Source of the DNA: a virus
Lineage: Duplodnaviria; Heunggongvirae; Uroviricota; Caudoviricetes
IMG/VR virus record: IMGVR_UViG_2526164598_000023
Direction: 5' to 3' (one strand)
Length of the DNA stretch: 38,064 nt
Under the pieces are notes generated by a model. It was given only the letters and a program-made list of their open reading frames with translations, ran no database searches and had not been told where the DNA came from. Shown here piece after piece: positions 24,473-36,792 of this stretch. How positions within the stretch are numbered: the stretch's first letter is position 1; each line of letters starts with the position of its first letter. A program made the position numbers and the translations under genes.

Positions 24473-24819
24473 AGTCCTGTTGCCACAGCCAGGCAGACCG
24501 CTGCAACAATCAGTGCACGGCGGATTAACGCAGCAGAAAACACCAGGTGAAGGCCGGTCTGTACCGGGAAACGCCCTTCAGCCATCAGCCTGTCGTCATG
24601 TTTCAGGTACTGACCGGGACGGGCTTTGGGGAAGAGCGAACGGTCAAGCCAGTAACCCAGCACTGCTGCCAGCGTGATAAGTGCCAGCTTGTAGATCACA
24701 ACAGGCAACTGCTGTGGCGAGACCAGAGCGATGATGCCCAGCAACAGCACTGAGGTCAGCAGCCAGCCGCTGAGGCGAGGTTTTTTAACAGGGGGAATGA
24801 ATTTTTTCAGGTTTTTCAT
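24469..24819 (-). CDS. Putative holin, three predicted TM segments, 116 aa
   Basis: Start placed at ATG 24817-24819 (MKNLKKF...) with AGGAG RBS; the stop overlaps the endolysin start by 4 nt. Confidence 0.4.
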   Translation of the reverse strand: MKNLKKFIPPVKKPRLSGWLLTSVLLLGIIALVSPQQLPVVIYKLALITLAAVLGYWLDRSLFPKARPGQYLKHDDRLMAEGRFPVQTGLHLVFSAALIRRALIVAAVCLAVATGL

Positions 24820-24933
24820 GTGTGTCTCCTCGTTTGGTGGAGACAGCATCACAAATGTGGCGGGATACGGATTTTAAACAGCGTTAATAGTGAAGATGTA
24901 AACGTGCACTGCATGATGACTTTGAAAGAACGA

Positions 24934-24961
24934 CCAGCCCGGTACCCGAACACCGGGCTGG
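24934..24961 (-). terminator. GC-rich stem-loop (10-bp stem, 8-nt loop), possible insulator/terminator upstream of the late operon
   Basis: CCAGCCCGGT-acccgaac-ACCGGGCTGG; on the minus strand it is followed by TCGTTCTTTC. Confidence 0.3.
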
Positions 24962-25007
24962 CCATCGCCCCACAGGAATGCGCTGTGAGCCGACCGAGGT
25001 TCAGTCA

Positions 25008-25019
25008 GTCTCGCGAGAC
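25008..25019. promoter_or_regulatory. Perfect 12-bp palindrome GTCTCGCGAGAC upstream of the methyltransferase gene
   Basis: Self-complementary 12-mer about 48 nt upstream of the ATG at 25067; TATAAT hexamer at 25042-25047. Confidence 0.25.
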
Positions 25020-25066
25020 CAGACTAGCCTGCCATATTTTTTATAATTGTAAAAGGCTTACAGATT

Positions 25067-25837
25067 ATGAAAATGCAGACATTACCCATCGTTCCATGGA
25101 TTGGTGGCAAACGCCGCCTTGCAAAACACATCCTGCCGCTGTTTCCGGCGCATGAATGTTATGTGGAGCCGTTTTGTGGGGCAGCAGCGCTCTATTTTCT
25201 TAAGGTACCCGGCAAGATCGAAGTCATTAATGATATCAACGGTGAACTGGTGAACCTGTATCGGGTGGTAAAACATCATCTGGAAGAATTTGTACGCCAG
25301 TTCAAATGGGCGCTGGTCAGCCGGCAGATCTACAAATGGCTGCAGATCACCCCGGAAGAAACACTGACGGATATCCAGCGTGCAGCACGGTTCTACTACC
25401 TTCAGAAGCAGGCGTTTGGAGGCAAGGTGGCGGAGCACAGCTTTGGTACCTCCACCATATCCCCGCCACGCTTCAACCTGCTGCGTATTGAAGAAGAACT
25501 GTCAGCGGCACACCTGCGGCTTTCCAGAACGGTCATAGAACACATGGACTGGCAACAGTGCATAGAACGATATGATCGCCCGCATACGTTGTTCTACTGT
25601 GACCCTCCATACTGGGGAACGGAAGGTTATGGTGTGGAGTTCGGACTAGAAAATTATGATCATATGGCAGATTTAGCACGCAGGATCAAAGGGAAGATGA
25701 TTATATCGGTGAACGATATCCCGGAAATGCGGCAGGCATTCAACGGTCTAAATATTCAGTCGGTTGATATCAGCTACAACCTCAAGATCACTGGCAAATC
25801 CAGTCGCAAGAAGGAACTCATTATCCTCAACTTTTGA
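25067..25837 (+). CDS. N6-adenine DNA methyltransferase, Dam-like, orphan (no adjacent restriction endonuclease), 256 aa
   Basis: AdoMet motif EPFCGAAALYF near the N-terminus and catalytic DPPY (YCDPPYWGTEGYG). Confidence 0.85.
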   Translation: MKMQTLPIVPWIGGKRRLAKHILPLFPAHECYVEPFCGAAALYFLKVPGKIEVINDINGELVNLYRVVKHHLEEFVRQFKWALVSRQIYKWLQITPEETLTDIQRAARFYYLQKQAFGGKVAEHSFGTSTISPPRFNLLRIEEELSAAHLRLSRTVIEHMDWQQCIERYDRPHTLFYCDPPYWGTEGYGVEFGLENYDHMADLARRIKGKMIISVNDIPEMRQAFNGLNIQSVDISYNLKITGKSSRKKELIILNF

Positions 25838-27032
25838 CCGAATAGTAAGACTTCATGCAGTGAATCAAGTACTGCATGAAGTCAAGGGCTGGTTTTGTGT
25901 ACCAAAAATAAACAGTGATAGCGGTAATAATTCCCATAACTAGAACACCACGTATAATCCAGAACGTACGTTTCTGCGTGTCTAGTCGCGCAGAAATACT
26001 GCTAAATACACCAGCCACGTCATCTTTAATGAAGGAATATTCCTTATTAATCTGTTTTTCTTTGTATTCAATTTCTTCGCCTAAGGCCTTTATAGATTGC
26101 ATCTGGTTCGAAAGTGCCAGCCAGATTAACGTTGCAGCAAAAATGCATCCCAGAAGAATTATTGTGTTTGTTATCCCTTGGCCTGACCATTTCGTAGCCA
26201 CTTTGAATTGGGTAGCTACGATAACAGAGGCAACAGGAATGCCAAGTATATGGTTCTGGATATCTGAAAACGCTTTGTGGATTTTACCCATTTCTTCGAC
26301 TTTTGCAGCACGCAGTTGATCCATTACTTTGTCATAAGAGAATCCAGAAGAGTAGATACGATACCCTTTCAGAAACTTTTCATGCAGACGCTGAATATTG
26401 TCCAGTAAATAAGCGAATACTAGAGGTGAATCAATTCCATCACTAACTGCTTGGATACTTTCAATCAGAATATCTAGCTTCTGATCCTTATGGGTATCAT
26501 CATTGAAACAAGCTATAAGGTTATCAAGATACTCTCTTTGCAAATTTTGTACATTTTCTGCAGCGAAGTGCGGTAATAGCTTGATAACTTCTTTTTTCAG
26601 AAAAACTAACTGACAAGTTGAGTTATCAAAGTAGGCCGCGGCCTCTTTTAGCAGGTTAACGAACTCGAGAATCTTCCGGTAGTTGCTGATGAAAACGGGG
26701 ATATCTTCATCATCATTACGAAACTTTGTTTCTAGGATGAAGTAATTAGCTGGCTCAAGGCACTGATGCTTTGGAGCATTTAGCAATTTTTCATGGGTGG
26801 AAAACACAAGTCCCAGTCCACTCCGTGGTGACGTCACACGTAGGATGATCGTGTTACCTGGAGCGATAGTGCCTGTATCAATAGAAAGACCATATTCACG
26901 AGGATCATCAAGCAAAGTATCAACCAGATCACAATCGGACTGATCTAAGAGCAACAGCGAACCGACACGAAACCCCTCTTGGAATTCCATACGACGATAC
27001 AGATCTGTCAGCATCTCAAATGAAATCGCCAC
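25827..27032 (-). CDS. Membrane protein with soluble N-terminal domain and two C-terminal TM helices, 401 aa
   Basis: GTG start at 27030-27032 two nt after the upstream stop, with a GAGG RBS (alternative ATG at 27014). TM helices ITNTIILLGCIFAATLIWLALS and FWIIRGVLVMGIITAITVYFWY; AT-rich codon usage. Confidence 0.65.
   Translation of the reverse strand: MAISFEMLTDLYRRMEFQEGFRVGSLLLLDQSDCDLVDTLLDDPREYGLSIDTGTIAPGNTIILRVTSPRSGLGLVFSTHEKLLNAPKHQCLEPANYFILETKFRNDDEDIPVFISNYRKILEFVNLLKEAAAYFDNSTCQLVFLKKEVIKLLPHFAAENVQNLQREYLDNLIACFNDDTHKDQKLDILIESIQAVSDGIDSPLVFAYLLDNIQRLHEKFLKGYRIYSSGFSYDKVMDQLRAAKVEEMGKIHKAFSDIQNHILGIPVASVIVATQFKVATKWSGQGITNTIILLGCIFAATLIWLALSNQMQSIKALGEEIEYKEKQINKEYSFIKDDVAGVFSSISARLDTQKRTFWIIRGVLVMGIITAITVYFWYTKPALDFMQYLIHCMKSYYSVKS
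25849..25883. repeat. Perfect 13-bp inverted repeat with 9-nt spacer
   Basis: GACTTCATGCAGT-gaatcaagt-ACTGCATGAAGTC, 12 nt past the methyltransferase stop and inside the last codons of the convergent 401-aa gene, at the boundary where composition becomes AT-rich. Confidence 0.7.
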
Positions 27033-27034
27033 GA

Positions 27035-28042
27035 TTAAACCTCAGTCATCCACATTTCCCTAAATTCTTCAGGTACATTACGTAGGGTGATAATATTTGT
27101 TTCCGGATCATAATCAATATAGCCTTCAGTTTTCCCTTCCCGGTCAAACTTAAGTTCCCAATATTTAGACTTGCCTTTAAAAGATACCAGAGCCCGAATG
27201 ACTCGACCATCAGGAACGAAGCCATCCGATAACTCCAACTCTTCAGCAGCAAGTTTACCAGATAACTCCTCGGGAGCCTGGGGCCAAATGGCATTAACAA
27301 GGGTTTCAAGACTAAGTGGTTCACCAGCCTTACTTAGTGCATGTAAGTGTTCAAACGCACTCTTAAGAAATGCATCTTTTTCAGCGCCGTCAAGTCCTTT
27401 CTCTGCCGCAAATGCTTTTAAAACGTCACGTAACTTTTCAGACTCTCGTTTGGCGATTAAGACATCATTACAGCCGAGGAACTGTTTAAAATAGTTTGAA
27501 ACATTACCTTGCCCCTTAAGAAAACTGATATAGCGCTCTGCGCCACTTTCCCACGCGGTTAAGTCAATGCGCCCAGCCATACGCAGCTTAGCAATATCAA
27601 GATAGGTACTATCTTGGATGTTAAAATCATCTGTGACAGTGGATCCAATGGTAGCGCTTACAATAGCTATCAACAGGTGTTCATTGTGTCCTATCACGAT
27701 ATTTGCAAAAAGAACATAACCACCAGTAGCCATGTTTTCTCGCTGAGAACGTTCCGTCAGGTGATGCATCATTCGGCAGGAACTTTGGTAGAAATCATCA
27801 ACACCTTCGAGAAAGTCCCCAGCCATTCGTTCCATAGGATAGTTATCCGTATCGCCTTCAAAATAGCCATAACCTTTACCTGTGCGTCCTGCATATTTTG
27901 CACAAATATCGTTTATAAGGCGCTGGGAGGCTTCAGTAACTAGACCTTCTTCAGGACTCAATCTCTCAGAAGCGTCTCCATTTTGTTGTTTGTCTAAAAT
28001 GTGAACTACAACGTGTTTAACTTCAATGGTCTGCTCAGACAT
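27035..28042 (-). CDS. NdpA/YejK-like nucleoid-associated protein homologue, 335 aa
   Basis: Segments GGYVLFANI..HLLIAIVS, YLDIAKLRMAGRIDLTAWESGAERYISFLKGQ and the C-terminal YIDYDPETNIITLRNVP resemble E. coli YejK as I remember it; same length (335 aa). ATG 28040-28042 with AAGGTGGA RBS. Confidence 0.65.
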   Translation of the reverse strand: MSEQTIEVKHVVVHILDKQQNGDASERLSPEEGLVTEASQRLINDICAKYAGRTGKGYGYFEGDTDNYPMERMAGDFLEGVDDFYQSSCRMMHHLTERSQRENMATGGYVLFANIVIGHNEHLLIAIVSATIGSTVTDDFNIQDSTYLDIAKLRMAGRIDLTAWESGAERYISFLKGQGNVSNYFKQFLGCNDVLIAKRESEKLRDVLKAFAAEKGLDGAEKDAFLKSAFEHLHALSKAGEPLSLETLVNAIWPQAPEELSGKLAAEELELSDGFVPDGRVIRALVSFKGKSKYWELKFDREGKTEGYIDYDPETNIITLRNVPEEFREMWMTEV

Positions 28043-28559: not shown

Positions 28560-28608
28560 ACAATAGACCCAATAGAGTACATCATAACCTAACAGGAACA
28601 CGGTGCAT

Positions 28609-28833
28609 ATGAACAAACAACAAGTTCGGGCACGGCTGGTTGAACGAGGCAGTAGCTTGCGCCAGTTCGCGCTTAACGCGGGCTATGAACCACGAACAGT
28701 CACCCAGGCAGTCAGTCGCTGGGCTGGTAAAAGTGAACTACCTCGCGGTCGTTTGACTTATCGGATTTTGCGAGATCTATCGGTTGCAATAGGTAAAGAA
28801 GTTACCCCCGGTATCCTTAAGGAGGCGTCATGA
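28609..28833 (+). CDS. ner: Ner-like DNA-binding protein, 74 aa
   Basis: MNKQQVRARLVERGSSLRQFALNAGYEPRTVTQAVSRW... matches the Mu Ner family; ATG 28609 with AGGAA RBS (the track start at 28603 is GTG). Confidence 0.7.
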   Translation: MNKQQVRARLVERGSSLRQFALNAGYEPRTVTQAVSRWAGKSELPRGRLTYRILRDLSVAIGKEVTPGILKEAS

Positions 28834-29138
28834 ATAAACCAAATACATCAAGCTCAGGTACCCGTATTTTGCGCGTTCTTAAGGCCTTACGTGGCCACGC
28901 TTTGAACGGTGTTTCTAACGGGGAACTAGCGGTTGCACTGCACGAATCACCGGCAAACATCAACCGGGCACTTAACACGCTCATTGAAGAAGGGTTGGCT
29001 CTGAAACTAGAAAACGGGCGTTTCGCACCAGGCATCCAGTTGCTGCAGATCGCCATGGCCCACAGTAACGAGATGGCACGTGCACAGGATCGCATTAACG
29101 AAATCAACCAACGTGTTATTTCAGGTAGTCGTTTGTAA
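28830..29138 (+). CDS. Winged-helix DNA-binding protein, 102 aa
   Basis: ILRVLKALRGHALNGVSNGELAVALHESPANINRALNTLIEEGL resembles a MarR/IclR-type wHTH. Confidence 0.5.
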   Translation: MNKPNTSSSGTRILRVLKALRGHALNGVSNGELAVALHESPANINRALNTLIEEGLALKLENGRFAPGIQLLQIAMAHSNEMARAQDRINEINQRVISGSRL

Positions 29139-29148
29139 GGAGTAATCA

Positions 29149-30060
29149 ATGGGACGCACCAAATCACCGGTTAGCACTGAACTGAACGTCGAGGTACCGC
29201 TGTCGGATGATCTCAATGTCAGTCTAAACGCCATGACACAGCATCGCATGGAAATCATGCAACAGTTCGGCGATGGTCTGCCCTATGAGCGCGATCGTGT
29301 TGTCCATGAGGCACGCTTTTATATGGCACAGAGCGCTGAGGCCATGCTGGAGGCAGGTAAGCGGCTGATAATCCTTAAGGAAAATGAACCACACGGGGAG
29401 TTTATAAAGATTCTTGAAAGTGAGTTGGGGCTGGCATACCGGACATCTGTGAGAATGATGCAAGCATCGACAAAATACTTATCCCCGGCGCTGAAACCAA
29501 ATGTGCCAACGTTGGCACATTTGGGAAAAGCCAAACTTTTCGAATTAATGACAGAAGACGACGAAGAGCTTGCCGAACTGGCCGACGGCGGCACAGTTGC
29601 CGGCCTGACGCTTGACGACGTTGATCGCATGTCAGTACGTGAATTGCGTCAGGCCCTGCGCGAAGCGCGCGAAACCAACGCAGCACAACAGCGCGTACTC
29701 GCTGACAAAAATGAAAAAATAGACTCACTCTCCACCAGACTGGAGAAGAAATCCCGTATTCAGCCGCCTGAGCCTGATGAAGAGGTTAAGAAGCTGCGGG
29801 CGGAAGTGACAGCATTAGCGGTTGAGGCGGAATCTGCTATCGCCGTTCGACTGTCCAGCGCTTTTGAGACGCTGTGCGCATATTGTGCTGAAAACATGAT
29901 TGATACCCCCAGAGACTTCATGGCAGGCCTGGTCTGTCAACTGGAAAGCACAGCGCGTAGCCTGCGCTCCACATTTGACCTGCCGGATGAGCCAACAGGC
30001 AATGCCGCGCCTTCATGGCTGACTGAGCCGACGCCACAGATTAACGGGCTGGAGGCATAA
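29149..30060 (+). CDS. Hypothetical protein, 303 aa
   Basis: ORF between the wHTH gene and the transposase; no recognised catalytic motif. Confidence 0.5.
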   Translation: MGRTKSPVSTELNVEVPLSDDLNVSLNAMTQHRMEIMQQFGDGLPYERDRVVHEARFYMAQSAEAMLEAGKRLIILKENEPHGEFIKILESELGLAYRTSVRMMQASTKYLSPALKPNVPTLAHLGKAKLFELMTEDDEELAELADGGTVAGLTLDDVDRMSVRELRQALREARETNAAQQRVLADKNEKIDSLSTRLEKKSRIQPPEPDEEVKKLRAEVTALAVEAESAIAVRLSSAFETLCAYCAENMIDTPRDFMAGLVCQLESTARSLRSTFDLPDEPTGNAAPSWLTEPTPQINGLEA

Positions 30061-30063
30061 CCA

Positions 30064-31833
30064 ATGAATGCTGCCCTGACTGAACGACTGGTTTATGTCG
30101 CCCGCGCGGCACGTGACGCGGGGCATGGTAAACGCGGTGCAATATACGACGCTGCCTGTGCTGAACTTGGCATGTCCCGCGCCACTCTGCTGCGCAGGCT
30201 GAAGGAGGTCTCTGTGACTGATAAACGCAAAAAACGCGCTGATGCCGGACGCAGCGCCCTGACCCGCGACGAAGCCGCGCTGATATCTGCCACACTGCGT
30301 GAGGCCACCCGCAAGAACGGTAAGCGTCTCTATTCCATCGCGGATGCAGTGGAAACCCTGCGGGCTAACGGCTTTATCTCCGCAGGCAGAACAGATGAAA
30401 CCACCGGTGAGTTTTTCCCGTTGTCCGAAGATGCCATCAGTCGTGCCCTGCGTAACTATGGCCTGCACCCGGAACAACTGGATGCTCCTGCGCCGCATAC
30501 CGAAGTGGCCAGTCTGCATCCCAATCATGTCTGGCAGATTGATGCCTCGCTCTGCACGCTTTACTACCTGAGCAATGGACACAAAGGGCTGCAGGTGATG
30601 GACAGCGCGAAGTTCTACAAGAACAAACCCGCTAACCTTGCCCGTATCGCCAGTGACCGCGTGTGGAGTTACGAGATTACCGACCATGCCAGCGGCTGGA
30701 TTTACGTTGAGTATGTGACGGGTGCGGAATCCGGTGAGAACCTGTGTTCTGTGCTTATCAACGCCATGCAGGAGCGTGGCGGCGCAGACGTGCTGCACGG
30801 CGTGCCAAAAATACTCTATCTCGACCCCGGTTCGGCAAACACCGCGGGTATGACGAAAAACATGTGCCGCTCACTGGGCATTGACCTGATAGCGCACAAG
30901 CCGCATAACGCCCGCGCCACCGGACAGGTGGAAAAGGCGCGTGACATTATCGAACGCAAGCTGGAGCCGGGTCTGAAGTTCCGGCCGGTTCACAGTCTGG
31001 AAGAACTCAACGCGCTGGCCGCGAAATGGCGCAGCCACTTTAACGCCACGGCTGTTCACAGCCGCCACGGTAAAACCCGCACGGATATCTGGCTGAAGAT
31101 TACTGCTGAGCAGCTGAAAAAAGCGCCTTCCGTTGAGGTATGTCGTGAACTGGCTGTGGCGGCACCAGAACTCCGCAAAGTCACGCCAAAACTTCGTGTC
31201 TCGTTCCGGGGCACTGAATTTGACGTATCAACGGTACCGGGCGTACTGGTCGGTGAAAAACTGATGATTACCCGTAACCCGTGGCGCAGCGATGTGGCAC
31301 AGGTGGTTCTGACCGGTGAGGACGGCCACGAGACGTTCTTCCTGGTCGAAGAGGTCAGAAAGAACGAGTTTGGCTTTGCTGAAGGCGCGGCGGTATTTGG
31401 CGAAAGTTACAAAGCCCTGCCGGAAACCCCGGCGCAGATGGCGGCAAAAGAAACCGAAGCGCTGGTCACCGGTACAGACAACGCCGCAGATGCAGCTGCC
31501 GCACGCAAGGCGAAGGCGCTGCCGTTCGGCGGGCGGCTTGACCCGTATAAACATATTGATGACGCCACACTTCCGGCCTATATGCCGAAGCGAGGTCAGG
31601 CCTCTGACGTACGCGGACCGCGCACTGAACAGCGTCCCATGACTCATGTGGAGGCCGCGAAAGCCCTGCGCGGGAAGTTCAGCGCCAACGGCCTTACCTG
31701 GACGCCGGAACATTACCGCCAGTTAACGGCACAGTACCCGGACGGCGTACCGGAAGCCGCACTGGATGAAGTCATGGCCACGCTGACCACGCCGGCCCGC
31801 AGCAGTGTTATCAGCATTGTTAACGGCAACTGA
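30064..31833 (+). CDS. DDE transposase (Mu A-like), 589 aa
   Basis: Candidate DDE residues in HVWQIDAS, ILYLDPGSANTAG and ATGQVEKARD; N-terminal HTH-like region; followed by an AAA+ gene. Confidence 0.8.
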   Translation: MNAALTERLVYVARAARDAGHGKRGAIYDAACAELGMSRATLLRRLKEVSVTDKRKKRADAGRSALTRDEAALISATLREATRKNGKRLYSIADAVETLRANGFISAGRTDETTGEFFPLSEDAISRALRNYGLHPEQLDAPAPHTEVASLHPNHVWQIDASLCTLYYLSNGHKGLQVMDSAKFYKNKPANLARIASDRVWSYEITDHASGWIYVEYVTGAESGENLCSVLINAMQERGGADVLHGVPKILYLDPGSANTAGMTKNMCRSLGIDLIAHKPHNARATGQVEKARDIIERKLEPGLKFRPVHSLEELNALAAKWRSHFNATAVHSRHGKTRTDIWLKITAEQLKKAPSVEVCRELAVAAPELRKVTPKLRVSFRGTEFDVSTVPGVLVGEKLMITRNPWRSDVAQVVLTGEDGHETFFLVEEVRKNEFGFAEGAAVFGESYKALPETPAQMAAKETEALVTGTDNAADAAAARKAKALPFGGRLDPYKHIDDATLPAYMPKRGQASDVRGPRTEQRPMTHVEAAKALRGKFSANGLTWTPEHYRQLTAQYPDGVPEAALDEVMATLTTPARSSVISIVNGN

Positions 31834-31843
31834 GGAGGAAAAC

Positions 31844-33010
31844 ATGCTGGTACTGAAGCAGCAACTGAAAGAGGCCCGTATTTCACAGGCGGTGGTGGCG
31901 AGAGCTGTCGATGTTTCTGAGGCCACGCTGGCCCAGATTGTGAATCATAACGCGTGGCCCCGCACCAGCCCCGGAGAAGTGCGCCGGCGTCTTGCGTCCT
32001 GGCTGGAAAGTCAGGGGATTGATACAGCGAAGAGTTTTGATGCTGTACAGGGCGCGGCCACGCCCCGTACATCGGGTACCACAGATAAAACGAGCCTCAG
32101 TGAGGAAGAGAATATGTTACTCAAAAAACAGGTGTTATTTCCAGCAACCAAAAAAGCGTTTGGTCTTTTCCGTGACCCGTTCGCCGACGAAGCCATGCAG
32201 GGTTCTGATGATGTGTTCACCACCCCGGACATTCGCTACGTGCGTGAGGCGTTGTACCAGACAGCACGTCATGGTGGGTTTATGGCCGTCATCGGTGAGT
32301 CCGGTGCGGGTAAATCCACGCTGCGCCGTGACCTGACTGAACGTATCAACCGCGAGAATGCGCCAGTGATTGTTATCGAGCCATACATCATCGCTATGGA
32401 AGACAACGATGTGAAAGGGAAAACTCTGAAGGCAGCAGCGATTGCCGAAGCCATTATCAGTACCATCGCACCACTGGAAAGCATCAGACGCAGTCAGGAC
32501 GCCCGCTTTCGCCAGTTGCATCGCGTCCTGAAAGACAGCAGCCAGGCGGGGTTCAGCCACGTTCTGGTGATTGAGGAGGCCCACAGTCTGCCCATTCCGA
32601 CACTGAAACACCTCAAACGCTTTTTTGAGCTGGAGTCCGGTTTCAAAAAACTGCTGTCCATCGTGCTAATTGGTCAGCCGGAACTGGCGACAAAACTGTC
32701 TGAACGCAATATGGAAGTCCGTGAAGTCGTTCAGCGCTGTGAGGTGGTCGAACTTCTGCCTCTGGACAATAACCTTGAAGAATTTCTGACGTTCAAACTG
32801 CAACGGGCCGGTAAACAACTGACGGACATTATGGACGCCAGCGCAGTGGATGCCATACGTGCCCGCCTGAGCAATCCGGGAAGTCATCGTAAAAATATGG
32901 TCAGCCTGCTGTATCCGCTGGCCGTCAGTAACCTGGTAATAGCCGCCATGAATCTGGCTGCTGAAATCGGGGTTCCACAGGTCAACGCTGACGTTGTCAA
33001 AGGGGTTTAA
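31844..33010 (+). CDS. Transposition ATPase (MuB-like AAA+), 388 aa
   Basis: Walker A GESGAGKST and Walker B VLVIEEAH; start placed at ATG 31844 with GAGGAGGA RBS. Confidence 0.8.
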   Translation: MLVLKQQLKEARISQAVVARAVDVSEATLAQIVNHNAWPRTSPGEVRRRLASWLESQGIDTAKSFDAVQGAATPRTSGTTDKTSLSEEENMLLKKQVLFPATKKAFGLFRDPFADEAMQGSDDVFTTPDIRYVREALYQTARHGGFMAVIGESGAGKSTLRRDLTERINRENAPVIVIEPYIIAMEDNDVKGKTLKAAAIAEAIISTIAPLESIRRSQDARFRQLHRVLKDSSQAGFSHVLVIEEAHSLPIPTLKHLKRFFELESGFKKLLSIVLIGQPELATKLSERNMEVREVVQRCEVVELLPLDNNLEEFLTFKLQRAGKQLTDIMDASAVDAIRARLSNPGSHRKNMVSLLYPLAVSNLVIAAMNLAAEIGVPQVNADVVKGV

Positions 33011-33012
33011 TA

Positions 33013-33282
33013 ATGAAATCCACCACAGGTATCAACCAGCAAATCAGCAAAGTGCAGTCAGCCATTATGGCGCTTAAGGCGACGAACACGGATGTACAAA
33101 GCATCACCATCAGGGGGAACAAACCTGTCATCCGCGTTTCCCGGAGTGCGCATTGCATGCGCATGCTTGAGCAGGGAAAGGCCTGTTATCTGTATACCGG
33201 ACATGACCACAGGGGATATTTCCGTCAGGGCGTTTTCGAACTGCACGGCTGTCGCGTCGTGTGGCCGGAATCTTTGTGGTAA
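33013..33282 (+). CDS. Hypothetical protein, 89 aa (position equivalent to Mu kil)
   Basis: ORF immediately after the B-like gene. Confidence 0.4.
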   Translation: MKSTTGINQQISKVQSAIMALKATNTDVQSITIRGNKPVIRVSRSAHCMRMLEQGKACYLYTGHDHRGYFRQGVFELHGCRVVWPESLW

Positions 33283-33309
33283 TCAGCACAACCGGAGAAA
33301 TCATAAAAA

Positions 33310-33840
33310 ATGGCAAAAAGTACAAAAGGTGCAAAACGTATCAAGGCCGCAGCAGCACTCTGGGTGCCGGGGACACGTGAAGAGGTCATTGAGGGCATCA
33401 GACTGCTCGGTGACGCACACCGTGAACTGGTCAGGGCTGAAACAGAAATGAATGACGCCATTGGCGATATCACCGCACGTTATGCCCCGCTCACCGAGAG
33501 CCTGAAAAAACGCATGGCCGAACTGCAGTCCGGTATTCAGACATGGTGTGAGGCACACCGTGATGAACTGACCGGCAACGGGAAGGTGAAGTTCGCTAAC
33601 CTCACCACCGGCGAGGTGCAGTGGCGAAACCGTCCGCCATCAGTCAGTATCCGTGGGGCGGATAATGTTATTGAATTACTGAGACGTCTGGGGCTTGAGC
33701 GCTTTATCCGTGTAAAGGAGGAAATAAATAAAGACGCTATCCTGAATGAAAAGGACGCCGTGAAAAATATTCCCGGTATTACCATAAAAAGTGATATTGA
33801 GGATTTTTCAATAATTCCTTTTGAGCAGGATGTGCAGTAA
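33310..33840 (+). CDS. gam: Host-nuclease inhibitor Gam (Mu Gam-like), 176 aa
   Basis: Mu Gam-like length; the sequence MAKSTKGAKRIKAAAALWVPGTREEVIEGIRLLGDAHRELVR fits the family. Confidence 0.8.
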   Translation: MAKSTKGAKRIKAAAALWVPGTREEVIEGIRLLGDAHRELVRAETEMNDAIGDITARYAPLTESLKKRMAELQSGIQTWCEAHRDELTGNGKVKFANLTTGEVQWRNRPPSVSIRGADNVIELLRRLGLERFIRVKEEINKDAILNEKDAVKNIPGITIKSDIEDFSIIPFEQDVQ

Positions 33841-33937
33841 ACACACCACGTTAATTATTTAATAAAAACATTTTCTTTTTTATTCCGGCGTCAGCGCCGT
33901 GGGCTTCTGCACGCCGGAAACAGAGGAGAATTAAATT

Positions 33938-34132
33938 ATGATATTTAAATGTATTCAGTGCGAGAGGGATATAACAGCCCTGCGTTTTCACAGCGCCATC
34001 GCCGTGATGTCCGGTAAATACCACATCCCTGCGGTACGCGTCACCCTGGTCTGCCCGTACTGCAGCCAGCATTTTTCGGCAGACGTGCCCGTCATGGAAT
34101 TCTCCCGCCCTGACAGGGAGGACTCGCAATGA
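33938..34132 (+). CDS. Small zinc-ribbon protein, 64 aa
   Basis: Two Cys pairs: CIQC and CPYC. Confidence 0.45.
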   Translation: MIFKCIQCERDITALRFHSAIAVMSGKYHIPAVRVTLVCPYCSQHFSADVPVMEFSRPDREDSQ

Positions 34133-34401
34133 TTACCCCACAGGAAGCACGACAGCGCACCCGAACCCTTGTTGAACACTATGTCAACGAGTGTGAATGC
34201 CGCGACCTCACCGATGTGAAGCACGTCCTGACGGCGCTAATCAGCATGACCGCTCAGGCCATTGTGGCGACCAACGGAAAGGCGGCTGCCCTGCAGGTAC
34301 TGGTGAACACACTAACCCACACGGCAGCGCATGAGGTGCCGTACCGGATGGAAACCACTGCAGAAGGCGGTCTGCACATCACCGTCAGCCGGAATCACTG
34401 A
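34129..34401 (+). CDS. Hypothetical protein, 90 aa
   Basis: ORF with overlapping stop/start to its neighbours. Confidence 0.45.
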   Translation: MITPQEARQRTRTLVEHYVNECECRDLTDVKHVLTALISMTAQAIVATNGKAAALQVLVNTLTHTAAHEVPYRMETTAEGGLHITVSRNH

Positions 34402-34410
34402 GGGCGCAGC

Positions 34411-34716
34411 ATGACACGGTACACCATACTCACCCGCACCGCCCTCTACCGTCTGGCCCTGCAGCGTTTCGGGCCGGACGCACAGGCCCTGAAACTGACA
34501 GAAGAGGCCGCTGAACTGGCAGCCTGTGCTGCCCGCAACCTGAACGGACAGGGCAGTGAAAGTGACCTCGCGGCAGAGCTGGCAGACGTGGAAATCATGA
34601 CAGAGCAGTTGCGCCTTCAGGGGATGGACCGGCTGATTGACTTCCACAAACAGAAAAAACTGGAACGCCTTGCCGCACGGCTGGGCGTCATGTACACCGG
34701 AGATACTGAACAATGA
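34411..34716 (+). CDS. MazG-like nucleotide pyrophosphohydrolase domain protein, 101 aa
   Basis: EEAAELAACAAR...ELADVEIMTEQL resembles the EExxE...E..D metal-binding helices of small MazG-like proteins. Confidence 0.5.
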   Translation: MTRYTILTRTALYRLALQRFGPDAQALKLTEEAAELAACAARNLNGQGSESDLAAELADVEIMTEQLRLQGMDRLIDFHKQKKLERLAARLGVMYTGDTEQ

Positions 34717-35396
34717 CAGACTTGGATAAACACATTGAAAAACTGAAAAAGTTGCTGGCGCTGGCAGCATCCGGCAACCCGTATGAGGCTGCTCTGGCAC
34801 TGCGCCGCGCCCGTAAACTGATGGATGTTCACGGCATCACACATTCCGACATTGCCATGAGTGATATTGATGAAACCATCAGTCATTACTGGCCGACAGG
34901 CAGTCTCCGTCCACCGCGCTACATGCTGGGCCTGATGAACATCATCCGCGAGGCATTTGGTGTTAACTCCATAATTCACCCCGGCACATATCCGGGTGTG
35001 GGGTTCTACGGCAACCGGGAACGGGCCGCACTGGCTGCGTACACCTGGGAAGTGCTGGCCCGCCAGCTGAAAAAGGCGCGTCAGCAGTATATCAGCGCAC
35101 AGAACAAAAGAATAAAAACTGCCACCCGTACCAGCCGTGGTGACCAGTTTGCTGAAGGCTGGGTGCTGGCCGTTATCAGTGAAATACAGTCCTTCGCCCT
35201 GACCGATGACGAACGTGAACTGATGCAGCAGTGGCTGGAACATAAATACCCGCAGACGCAAACCACCAGGGCGCGTAAACCGGGAAGAAGCCGCAATGGC
35301 GACGCCTCGCGCTATGCGGGGTTTCGTGAAGGGCAGAACGTCAGACTGCACCGCCCGGTCAGTGGGCAGGAACAACAGAAACTGGAGGCCAGATGA
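34713..35396 (+). CDS. Conserved phage early protein (DUF2786-like N-terminus), 227 aa
   Basis: N-terminus IEKLKKLLALAASGNPYEAALALRRARKLM. Confidence 0.5.
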   Translation: MTDLDKHIEKLKKLLALAASGNPYEAALALRRARKLMDVHGITHSDIAMSDIDETISHYWPTGSLRPPRYMLGLMNIIREAFGVNSIIHPGTYPGVGFYGNRERAALAAYTWEVLARQLKKARQQYISAQNKRIKTATRTSRGDQFAEGWVLAVISEIQSFALTDDERELMQQWLEHKYPQTQTTRARKPGRSRNGDASRYAGFREGQNVRLHRPVSGQEQQKLEAR

Positions 35397-35623
35397 TTAC
35401 GCTATCAGGTAACAGCCGGAAATTAAAAGCCTGCCGAATATCTGCCAGATACCTTTTTGCCCGCGCCTTTTTTAAGAACGTAAGGCCGGGGATCACAATT
35501 GGTGTTATTGCCGGACGCGAACAGGTTGAAAAATACATGTCAGGTGCATGGTGGAATAACGACCCTGTCATTGCTGCCCGTAATATTCATATCAGTTGGG
35601 GGGATATTCAGAATGACGGCTGA
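35393..35623 (+). CDS. Hypothetical protein, 76 aa
   Basis: ORF overlapping the start of the next gene. Confidence 0.4.
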   Translation: MITLSGNSRKLKACRISARYLFARAFFKNVRPGITIGVIAGREQVEKYMSGAWWNNDPVIAARNIHISWGDIQNDG

Positions 35624-35828
35624 ATCTGTTGTATGTGCCCTGTTCTGGTATTGTTTTGTCGGTTGGTGTACTGCTGAACTGCACCGCCGTTCAGGGTTTT
35701 ATTCACGTTACAGTGGTGCCGGCTACTGGATTAGCTGGTCGGTGATGTTCCTGTGCTGGCCTGTGGCGCTTCCTTTATATGTCGATTATATCGGTGGCGC
35801 AGGTAAAAGGAGCAACGATGATGACTAA
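35613..35828 (+). CDS. Small membrane protein, 71 aa
   Basis: ATG 35613; two hydrophobic helices (VCALFWYCFVGWCTA and WISWSVMFLCWPVALPLYV). Confidence 0.45.
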   Translation: MTAESVVCALFWYCFVGWCTAELHRRSGFYSRYSGAGYWISWSVMFLCWPVALPLYVDYIGGAGKRSNDDD

Positions 35829-36270
35829 ACAACGTCTTATCCAGCTCATTCATATTGCCCGTAATGAACTGGGTATGGATGAAGACACCTACCGCCAGAT
35901 GTTACAGGGGCTGACCGGTAAAGCCTCAACCAAAGGAATGGATACCACACAACTAAACTGCGTGCTGGAATCCATGAAAAGGAAAGGCTTTCGCGTTAAG
36001 CCTGCCAGAAAAGCCAGCTCCGGTTTACCGCTGGATAACCATCCGCAGTCCAGGAAAATCCGTGCGCTATGGCTTGAAATGGCTGCTGCCGGCATTGTTC
36101 GTGACCGTTCAGAAAATGCATTAGCGCGGTGGATCAAGCGGGAAACGGGCATCAGCGCCCTGCGCTGGCTCAATACTGAACAGGCAAGCAGTGTTATTGA
36201 GAAACTGAAGAAGTGGCAGCACAGAGCTGCGGGAGTAAAACATGAGCGACCTGAATCAGTTTCGAAGTAA
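35818..36270 (+). CDS. gemA: GemA-like regulatory protein, 150 aa
   Basis: MMTKQRLIQLIHIARNELGMDEDTYRQMLQGLTGKAST resembles Mu GemA; GGAG RBS. Confidence 0.65.
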   Translation: MMTKQRLIQLIHIARNELGMDEDTYRQMLQGLTGKASTKGMDTTQLNCVLESMKRKGFRVKPARKASSGLPLDNHPQSRKIRALWLEMAAAGIVRDRSENALARWIKRETGISALRWLNTEQASSVIEKLKKWQHRAAGVKHERPESVSK

Positions 36271-36631
36271 AGGGCCGGAACTCCTGGTGGAACTGGCACA
36301 GCATACCTCTGAGACCGTTCGCGAGATTATTGATATTGAGCCCGCAATTGCCGACCAGATTGGTCAGGCCGTCGCGAACCGCATGATGCAGGTCTGGGGC
36401 GGGCAAAACGTTTATTTCCCGATGGGCATGGTATGGAAGGTCAGTCAGCGCGACCGGGAAATCTTCAGGGAGTTTAACGGACGTAACCACCATGAACTGG
36501 CCCGCAAATTTGGTGTTTCGCTTCAGTGGGTCTACAGCGTGGTTAAGCGGGTAAGAAAAGAAGAACTGGATCGGATGCAGGGCAAGCTATTTGCTGATGA
36601 ACCCGATGTAGATACGGAGAAAAAAGAGTAA
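36242..36631 (+). CDS. mor: Mor/C-family transcription activator, 129 aa
   Basis: Same length as Mu Mor; C-terminal HTH ELARKFGVSLQWVYSVVKR; GGGAG RBS. Confidence 0.8.
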   Translation: MSDLNQFRSKGPELLVELAQHTSETVREIIDIEPAIADQIGQAVANRMMQVWGGQNVYFPMGMVWKVSQRDREIFREFNGRNHHELARKFGVSLQWVYSVVKRVRKEELDRMQGKLFADEPDVDTEKKE

Positions 36632-36659
36632 TATCTGCAATCAGGCTGGAGCGAGTTCT

Positions 36660-36792
<133 letters not shown>

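Follow-up and report, generated by a model that had tools for sequence, protein, structure and literature searches.

A solitary D12-class DNA methyltransferase gene in a BcepMu-like Escherichia coli prophage, and a conserved structured RNA predicted on the opposite strand upstream of it

The IMG/VR virus record IMGVR_UViG_2526164598_000023, a stretch of 38,064 nucleotides analysed here as a whole and called the window below, has the gene content of a BcepMu-like (Bcepmuvirus) transposable prophage of E. coli. At 25067-25837, on the plus strand, its open reading frame (ORF), Pfam match and sequence motifs identify a solitary D12-class (alpha-type) DNA amino-methyltransferase of 256 residues, hereafter the methylase. 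Directly upstream, on the minus strand at 24918-25033, RNAalifold, covariation and a covariance model define a conserved structured RNA motif of 116 nt. A spacer of 33 nt (25034-25066, plus strand) separates the 5' end of the RNA from the methylase start codon, and holds the Shine-Dalgarno sequence within a conserved initiation region of the type GGCUUACAGAU-AUG. The methylase gene is real, but it is an ordinary, common and already annotated prophage gene; the new part is the conserved RNA on the opposite strand upstream of it.

The methylase and its relatives

The methylase ORF starts with ATG and ends with TGA, and has the Shine-Dalgarno sequence AAGG at 25053-25056, ten bases 5' of the ATG. 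Its product matches PF02086 (D12-class N6-adenine DNA methyltransferase) over residues 11-234 of 256 with E=7.3e-28 and a profile score of 98.4 bits against a curated cut-off of 22. The FxGxG-like S-adenosylmethionine motif I (EPFCGAAA, residues 34-41; FCGAAA at 25172-25189) lies N-terminal to motif IV, the catalytic DPPY (residues 179-182, at 25601-25612), which is the alpha order, and an alignment of the family has F36, G38, A40 and D179 to Y182 invariant. A preliminary description of this DNA, made from the letters alone, had called a DPPY methyltransferase here, and the ORF, the PF02086 match and the motif positions bear this out. Its term 'Dam-type adenine' stands only in part: the D12/DPPY class is right, but 'Dam-type' is too specific, since the protein fails the Dam equivalog model described below, and 'adenine' is a deduction. 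The better label should be D12-class, with the specificity left open.

Could the protein nevertheless be a true Dam-like GATC methylase, serving phage regulation or packaging, or topping up host Dam during rapid replication? There is a precedent in P1 Dam, which acts at pac. The closest solved relatives of the methylase are DpnM, E. coli Dam and M.CbeI (E about 1e-15 to 1e-17), the broad TIGR00571 subfamily model is barely passed (116.9 bits versus 114.85), and the record for gp27 of phage phiE125, a relative of the methylase, notes a likeness to the AlwI (GGATC) methylase. All of these are points in favor. On the Dam equivalog model NF008152 of NCBIfam, however, the methylase scores 69.2 bits against a cut-off of 441. 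In the HMMER alignment to E. coli Dam (2G1P), moreover, Y119, N120, L122, R124 and P134, which we take from structural work on the Dam-DNA complex to be residues of the DNA-reading beta-hairpin, are replaced by F117, G118, K120, A122 and S132; the GATC-reading hairpin of Dam (FNVPFGRY and the preceding Y-N-G-L-C-R) gives way to FGGKVAEHSFGTSTISPPRF. The host has its own Dam, and to our knowledge many hosts of the methylase family (Pseudomonas, Burkholderia) have no Dam-based systems. GATC itself is depleted in the prophage, with 98 sites observed against 176 expected (0.56), and 9 against 25 in the early region (28603-36700); this was the only oligonucleotide bias seen, GGCC, CATG and GATATC being near expectation in the window. 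By these sequence criteria the methylase is not a Dam orthologue, its target is probably something other than plain Dam-like GATC recognition, and a Dam-like role is unlikely.

The stretch that replaces the Dam hairpin is itself conserved within the family: the putative target-recognition residues (FGGK...G..T...NLLR) are invariant in seven members from five host genera, and because of this a common non-Dam specificity across the family is suggested. A literature search turned up no recognition motif determined for this family. Lysogens of phiE125 reportedly contain N6-methyladenine (m6A).

The motif by itself does not tell which base is modified, because M.CbeI (7M6B), an alpha-class N4-cytosine enzyme that makes N4-methylcytosine, has DPPY as well. 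M.CbeI aligns to the methylase over its full length with E=6e-15, as well as Dam does, and is the closer of the two in the loop that replaces the Dam hairpin; both observations would fit an N4-cytosine enzyme rather than an adenine enzyme. On the other side of the balance, most D12/DPPY enzymes are m6A enzymes. The same is true of the Com-linked Dam-related enzymes of Mu-like prophages, which make m6A (Drozdz et al. 2012, PMC3299994). We attach little probability to N4-cytosine modification.

Close relatives of the methylase are common. Several E. coli chromosomes are 100% identical to the window in the methylase region; the gene is present in 535 of 5426 complete E. coli genomes (about 10%), the pandemic clone ST131 included; and clusters of methylases about 91% identical to it occur throughout the Enterobacterales. 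At 58-76% identity, relatives are found in temperate phages and prophages of Pseudomonas, Burkholderia, Halomonas, Stenotrophomonas, Acinetobacter, Nitrosomonas, Geobacter and others. Among these are ORF48 of phage B3 (66% identity over 255 residues, which is full length; E=4e-131) and gp27 of phiE125 (65%). Members of the family are found within the late gene blocks of many unrelated temperate phages, or where these blocks end.

A relative of particular use is the methylase of prophage Phi2 in the ST131 strain EC958 (EC958_RS05075), which is 88% identical at the amino acid level. The identity is unevenly spread: 178 of the first 180 residues are the same in both proteins, but identity drops to about 60% over the C-terminal 76. 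A lower GC content (0.44 against 0.52 in the remainder) also marks the 3' third of the gene (25607-25837). The low-GC 3' third and the C-terminal divergence from the EC958 allele together mark the gene as a mosaic, and suggest a recombination joint just past the DPPY codons. EC958_RS05075 is probably the same enzyme as M.EcoMIV (EC958_1101), described as a D12-class orphan on Phi2 to which no motif was assigned and for which the lysogen gave no reverse-transcription PCR signal; no homologue of M.EcoMIV above 65% identity had been characterised or had a known motif (Forde et al. 2015, PMC4659465).

Neither flank of the methylase in the window contains a nuclease domain detectable with Pfam. For a wider view we surveyed 80 methylase loci from different species, in which ORFs were called and all neighbors clustered. 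No neighbor cluster was common to more than 13 of these loci, and no restriction-nuclease family appeared among the 25 Pfam families most often seen in the 150 immediate neighbors (one gene to either side), a list that stops short of 42 rarer families. Nor was a nuclease partner seen in the phage contexts examined. The preliminary description had taken the enzyme for an orphan with no endonuclease beside it, and had allowed that a cognate endonuclease might appear next to relatives; the first holds in the window, and no such endonuclease emerged across the 80 species-level loci. From its gene neighborhoods, then, the methylase is a solitary prophage enzyme and not one half of a restriction-modification system.

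What does recur beside the methylase is Com. The commonest Pfam family among the immediate neighbors is Zn_ribbon_Com, which resembles the Com protein of phage Mu, the translational activator of mom, and with a dedicated hidden Markov model a Com gene was recognised immediately 5' of the methylase in phage Bise and in 27 of the 80 loci. In two Paludibacterium loci (L052, 3794-4747; L063, 3794-4753) Com and methylase lie in one frame uninterrupted by stop codons; the two may be fused, or may overlap very closely. The window itself was searched in all six frames for a concealed Com gene, and no Com-like ORF emerged, the best match (E=0.036) falling within another gene.

A structured RNA upstream, on the opposite strand

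The roughly 145 bp 5' of the methylase start (24923-25066) are better conserved than the gene itself, and among 556 E. coli genomes the conserved block has a sharp edge at 24923. RNAalifold, applied to a diverse collection of copies, yielded a multi-helix structure on the minus strand, and a covariance model was built from 36 sequences. Read 5' to 3' on the minus strand, the RNA begins at 25033 with an 8-nt tail, GGCAGGCU (consensus G-UAGGCU), followed by hairpin P1 (25003-25025) and by a junction helix of 4 bp (24999-25002 with 24928-24931) that encloses hairpin P2 (24964-24994) and the GC-rich hairpin P3 (24933-24962); it ends in a pyrimidine-rich tail (24918-24927).

Support for the pairing is strong. 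Across 60 distinct sequences, 93.3% of cells are paired and 33 of the 34 base pairs show compensatory changes; none of 500 shuffles did as well, and sliding the partners along the sequence abolished the signal. The strand can be told in two ways. First, paired cells amount to 93.3% on the minus strand versus 82.3% on the plus strand, G-U pairs number 258 versus 43, and for one helix pairing is 97% versus 54%, all these counts being biased towards the minus strand because the alignments were made on it or fitted to it. Second, the consensus energy is -53.9 kcal/mol for the minus strand and -34.1 kcal/mol for the plus strand, with the minus strand folding better in 58 of the 60 sequences. The comparative evidence makes it clear that the structure has been selected on the strand opposite the methylase, and the G-U asymmetry and the energies rule out reading the conserved block as a plus-strand 5' leader or riboswitch.

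The palindrome GTCTCGCGAGAC (25008-25019) was considered as a repeated activator site of late promoters and was set aside, as it occurs once in the window, which is chance level; it forms the apex of the covarying helix P1. In Photorhabdus-type copies (L017, L101, L125, L150) the P1 loop carries one to three additional tandem units of ATTGATT/AATCAAT.

Rfam 15 gave no match at gathering score anywhere in the window, and none at E<=10 within 24750-25150. When eight other RNA-bearing loci were searched in the same database, the sole overlapping match was a sub-threshold one to SymR in phage phiHAP-1 (L009, 3356-3429, minus strand; 29.8 bits against a gathering score of 61, E=0.13), which is most likely due to chance. 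The literature likewise yielded nothing on a 'D12-methyl' RNA motif. As far as Rfam and the searchable literature show, the structured RNA is undescribed.

How widespread is it? The covariance model detected a copy in 60 of the 80 methylase loci, across the Proteobacteria, and in phages Bise, vB_E192b, phiHAP-1, phiE125 (by gp27) and B3 (upstream of com). Full-length copies found in this way are always on the strand opposite the methylase. The distance from the RNA to the methylase start is 5-55 nt in most loci and 116 nt in two, and becomes about 165-260 nt where com intervenes. The upstream region of com in phage Mu was searched for the RNA, and it was not found there. In B3 (L160, 1597-1822) two tiny annotated ORFs, 45 and 46 (43 and 26 residues), overlap the RNA on the other strand; these are probably spurious.

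Since all the loci above were collected by way of the methylase, viral contigs were also searched with a loose pattern that described the RNA only, and 38 copies so retrieved were confirmed by the covariance model. Eighteen of these 38 contigs have, as the gene divergent from the RNA's 5' end, a D12 methylase of the present family, and nine have an unrelated N6_N4 (PF01555) methylase. On others the divergent gene encodes a lectin-like (B_lectin) protein (three contigs), a colicin M-like protein (two), a small unidentified protein (three, with Com before it in two) or Com followed by a DUF642 protein (one); in the remaining two contigs the sequence is too short to tell. The N6_N4 methylases, the colicin M-like and lectin-like proteins and Com with DUF642 keep a spacing of 16-35 nt (viral contigs L162-L261; for example L179, 553-669; L228, 6470-6588; L162, 2834-2952; L170, 5951-6068). 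Similar initiation regions (GGCUU-CAGAU-AUG), with the RNA at a spacing of 16-55 nt, precede com and the D12 methylase, and the N6_N4 methylase loci keep the spacing but only part of the initiation sequence. The RNA is thus not a device specific to this methylase, an idea that the retrieval beside other cargo rules out. Because the same RNA stands at the same spacing before varied cargo, it looks like a portion of a portable cassette placed before late cargo that would be harmful in the lysogen. A helix that would sequester the Shine-Dalgarno sequence (AGCCU with AGGCU) was among the candidates tried; it was rejected, being invariant without covariation, partly forced by the retrieval pattern, and absent from the N6_N4 loci.

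With an RNA predicted opposite the 5' end of a methylase gene, a comparison with type I toxin-antitoxin logic suggests itself: the RNA would be the antisense antitoxin to a harmful methylase, and the two would act as an addiction pair, serving to stabilise the prophage and not to guard phage DNA. It would suit this idea that the same RNA precedes colicin M-like and lectin-like, bacteriocin-like toxins, that unscheduled expression of phage modification genes is harmful (PMC3299994), and that one locus has the weak SymR antitoxin resemblance mentioned above. That resemblance is at chance level, however; the modelled RNA is clear of the ribosome-binding site and coding region; and no promoter was identified for the RNA. 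E. coli A24 (L161, 3350-3546) adds a further argument. Its methylase gene breaks off after 46 nt, where other genes have taken its place, yet the RNA is whole (110 bits), with no sign of joint decay. An addiction pair is in our judgement improbable.

The cargo slot and the 3' end of the gene

The methylase lies between the late genes and the immunity region of the prophage. To its left are a holin gene (PF13272) and an SLT lysin gene, the lysis cassette from which the late genes start and run leftward. To its right are genes for a 401-residue protein without a Pfam match, an NA37 nucleoid-associated protein and a helix-turn-helix repressor, and the right side of the prophage further includes, besides the repressor, a Ner-like gene, a DDE transposase, Gam and a Mor-family activator. 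Host hyf genes are found at the prophage junction. Between the 3' end of the structured RNA and the holin gene is a motif, CTATTAACGCTGTTTAAAAT (24871-24890, minus strand), which occurs once in the window and is kept in most Enterobacterales variants, even where additional cargo parts it from the holin gene; it may be part of a Mor-dependent late promoter.

In BcepMu-like prophages the position of the methylase between lysis cassette and immunity region or repressor is fixed, but the cargo on both sides of it varies. In S12 and Klebsiella phage KP12 an additional gene lies between holin and methylase and a different small gene downstream; in EC958 and PhiKM other genes precede the methylase and none separates it from the repressor. 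By this comparison the slot between the lysis cassette and the repressor is a cargo hotspot.

In the window the slot holds two AT-rich genes on the minus strand (25827-28042), which are context outside the methylase unit: that of the 401-residue membrane protein (25827-27032, from its ORF) and that of the 335-residue NA37 protein (27035-28042; Pfam NA37, E=1e-80). The late genes have a GC content of about 0.56 and these two only 0.40-0.43, and the AT-rich module of the preliminary description is in this sense real. The pair matches the NCBIfam 'anti-phage' models DS1_1 and DS1_2 in the right order (E=1e-17 and 3e-21), though far below their cut-offs, and the 401-residue protein has a weakly KwaA-like C-terminus; the two proteins are, on these matches, probably a diverged relative of a described defence pair.

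This likeness raises the question whether the methylase works with the pair, for example by marking self DNA. The genes do adjoin, with ends overlapping by 11 nt, the pair resembles the DS1_1 and DS1_2 anti-phage proteins, and similar minus-strand ORFs of about 400 codons abut the methylase in Mixta and Brenneria prophages. But of the 535 complete E. coli genomes that have the methylase, only 19 have the NA37 and 401-residue pair; unrelated cargo occupies the same slot in S12, KP12, EC958 and PhiKM; the pair differs in GC content from the methylase (0.40-0.43 versus 0.49-0.52); and no such partner recurs among the 80 relatives. A joint function is very improbable.

The same distribution bears on the convergent 3' ends. 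The stop regions of the methylase and of the 401-residue ORF overlap by 11 nt (25827-25837), as the preliminary description had noted; ORF coordinates agree, and RefSeq annotates both genes, with this overlap, in E. coli chromosomes of identical sequence. The further suggestion of transcriptional interference, with the overlap acting as a regulatory device, finds no support, given that the methylase is in 535 genomes and the cargo pair in 19. The overlap is limited to the cargo variant with that pair, and other variants have after the methylase a gap of 48-116 nt that holds a terminator hairpin. In EC958 and S12 such intergenic hairpins lie 10-20 nt past the stop. The window has an inverted repeat of 13-14 bp at 25849-25883, 12 nt past the methylase stop (-25 kcal/mol, z=-3.5), which falls within the last 18 codons of the 401-residue gene. 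A simple terminator scan did not call it, but the methylase transcript probably ends there. The overlap seems to have arisen incidentally, when cargo was inserted beside the methylase terminator, and does not look like regulatory design, although antisense read-through from the cargo or repressor side is possible. The conserved regulatory signal, as far as sequence comparison can place it, is on the 5' side of the methylase and not at the 3' overlap.

Predicted control and comparison with known systems

We propose, with a probability of roughly 60%, that this is a solitary phage methylase that is silent in the lysogen, has an anti-restriction role in lytic growth and is under RNA- or Com-type control. 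The enzyme would be made during lytic growth and would modify progeny phage DNA before packaging, so that the DNA could survive restriction in the next host; in function it would then correspond to Mu Mom and to the Com-linked methylases of FluMu-type prophages. Protection against restriction, which the preliminary description had offered as one function, is retained as plausible. Control would most likely be post-transcriptional. Com precedes the methylase in about a third of the relatives, and in the lineage of the window, which lacks Com, the gene is instead preceded by the RNA. This RNA may be a cis-encoded regulator, antisense or divergent, or else an insulator, and would restrict late cargo that harms the host. 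The hairpin and pyrimidine-rich tail at its 3' end are aimed at the holin gene, about 100 nt away, and could also stop leftward transcription from the repressor or cargo side before it reached the lysis genes.

More generally, and more tentatively, we suggest that the RNA represents an undescribed class of phage riboregulator in a portable cassette (RNA, initiation region and optional Com) of temperate phages and tailocin-like elements of Beta-, Gamma- and Deltaproteobacteria, which gates late cargo harmful to a lysogen (DNA methylases of two unrelated families, and bacteriocins of colicin M-like and lectin-like type) and is Com-less in the BcepMu-like prophages of E. coli. We hold this to be possible, at somewhat less than an even chance.

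Several points weigh against the proposal. Neither the methylase nor the RNA has a convincing sigma-70 promoter: promoter and terminator scans of 24700-26100 gave about as many sites as shuffled sequence, and there is an A/T-rich, -10-like GAAAAT just upstream of the RNA in Enterobacterales but no promoter element common across taxa. For want of a convincing promoter, the RNA is only a putative separate transcript. The modelled RNA stops 33 nt upstream of the start codon and therefore leaves the ribosome-binding site uncovered, and the helix that might sequester the Shine-Dalgarno sequence lacks covariation. The RNA is found beside non-methylase cargo too. The depletion of GATC is compatible with several scenarios and does not decide the target motif. 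Finally, EC958_RS05075 is equated with M.EcoMIV on the basis of prophage, domain and position, not of an accession.

Taken alone, the methylase changes little, although its target motif would fill a gap in the ST131 methylome work and would show whether these prophages can protect their DNA from restriction in hosts that they newly enter. More important is the RNA: its covariation is very strong, it is widespread, and it is tied to genes that phages must not express in the lysogen. As a regulator, if that is its role, it would account for the silencing of such genes in phages that lack Com, would add an RNA layer to the com-mom paradigm, and could serve as an annotation marker for host-harmful late cargo.

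Among known systems, the Phi2 methylase of EC958 is nearest. It belongs to the same BcepMu-like family, is likewise an orphan D12 enzyme in the slot between lysis genes and repressor, and has the same RNA upstream (about 1,031,637-1,031,752 of the EC958 chromosome, opposite in strand to EC958_RS05075); Phi2 differs from the window in having three additional genes upstream of the methylase and no NA37 pair downstream. B3 of Pseudomonas aeruginosa is also a Mu-like transposable phage, with ORF48 orthologous to the methylase and a copy of the RNA motif immediately before the operon, on the other strand. Unlike the window, it has a Com gene (ORF47) between RNA and methylase, and the module is within the tail gene block. 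ORF47 and ORF48 were cited by Drozdz et al. (2012, PMC3299994), when the activity of ORF48 was still untried.

E. coli Dam, T4 Dam and DpnM share with the methylase PF02086, the motif order and the catalytic DPPY; they are set apart by an identity of about 25%, by a DNA-contact hairpin that is not conserved in the methylase, and by its failure at the equivalog cut-off. The best functional precedent, by analogy, is offered by the Dam-related methylases found at the mom position of Mu-like prophages, enzymes that show no activity in lysogens and make DNA resistant to many nucleases (Drozdz et al. 2012, PMC3299994). Hia5, Hin1523 and Nme1821 of this group (PMC3299994) resemble the methylase in being Dam-related and prophage-borne, in their FxGxG and DPPY motifs, in a target-recognition region that diverges from Dam, and in having no nuclease partner; they are also silent in lysogens and have a proposed anti-restriction role, as is predicted here for the methylase. 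Nonspecific m6A formation has been shown for these enzymes, and relaxed specificity for them only; unlike the methylase of the window, they are always Com-linked. These enzymes moreover probably form a separate subfamily; according to the authors, B3 ORF48 lies outside the 1000 closest relatives of Hia5 (PMC3299994).

In the com-mom operon of Mu, as would be the case here, a late, host-harmful DNA-modification gene of a transposable phage is held under tight post-transcriptional control, and relatives of the methylase carry Com. There is, however, no copy of the RNA motif upstream of Mu com, and Mom is an acyltransferase-fold enzyme and not a methylase (PMC3299994). On the RNA side, the obvious parallels are P22 Sar, SymR and CopA. 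The RNA of the window differs from these in having a conserved three-way junction with conserved junction nucleotides, and its modelled part falls 16-55 nt short of the start codon; what it has in common with them is that they are small structured RNAs, with a hairpin and a U/C-rich tail, that lie opposite the 5' region of a gene to be limited.

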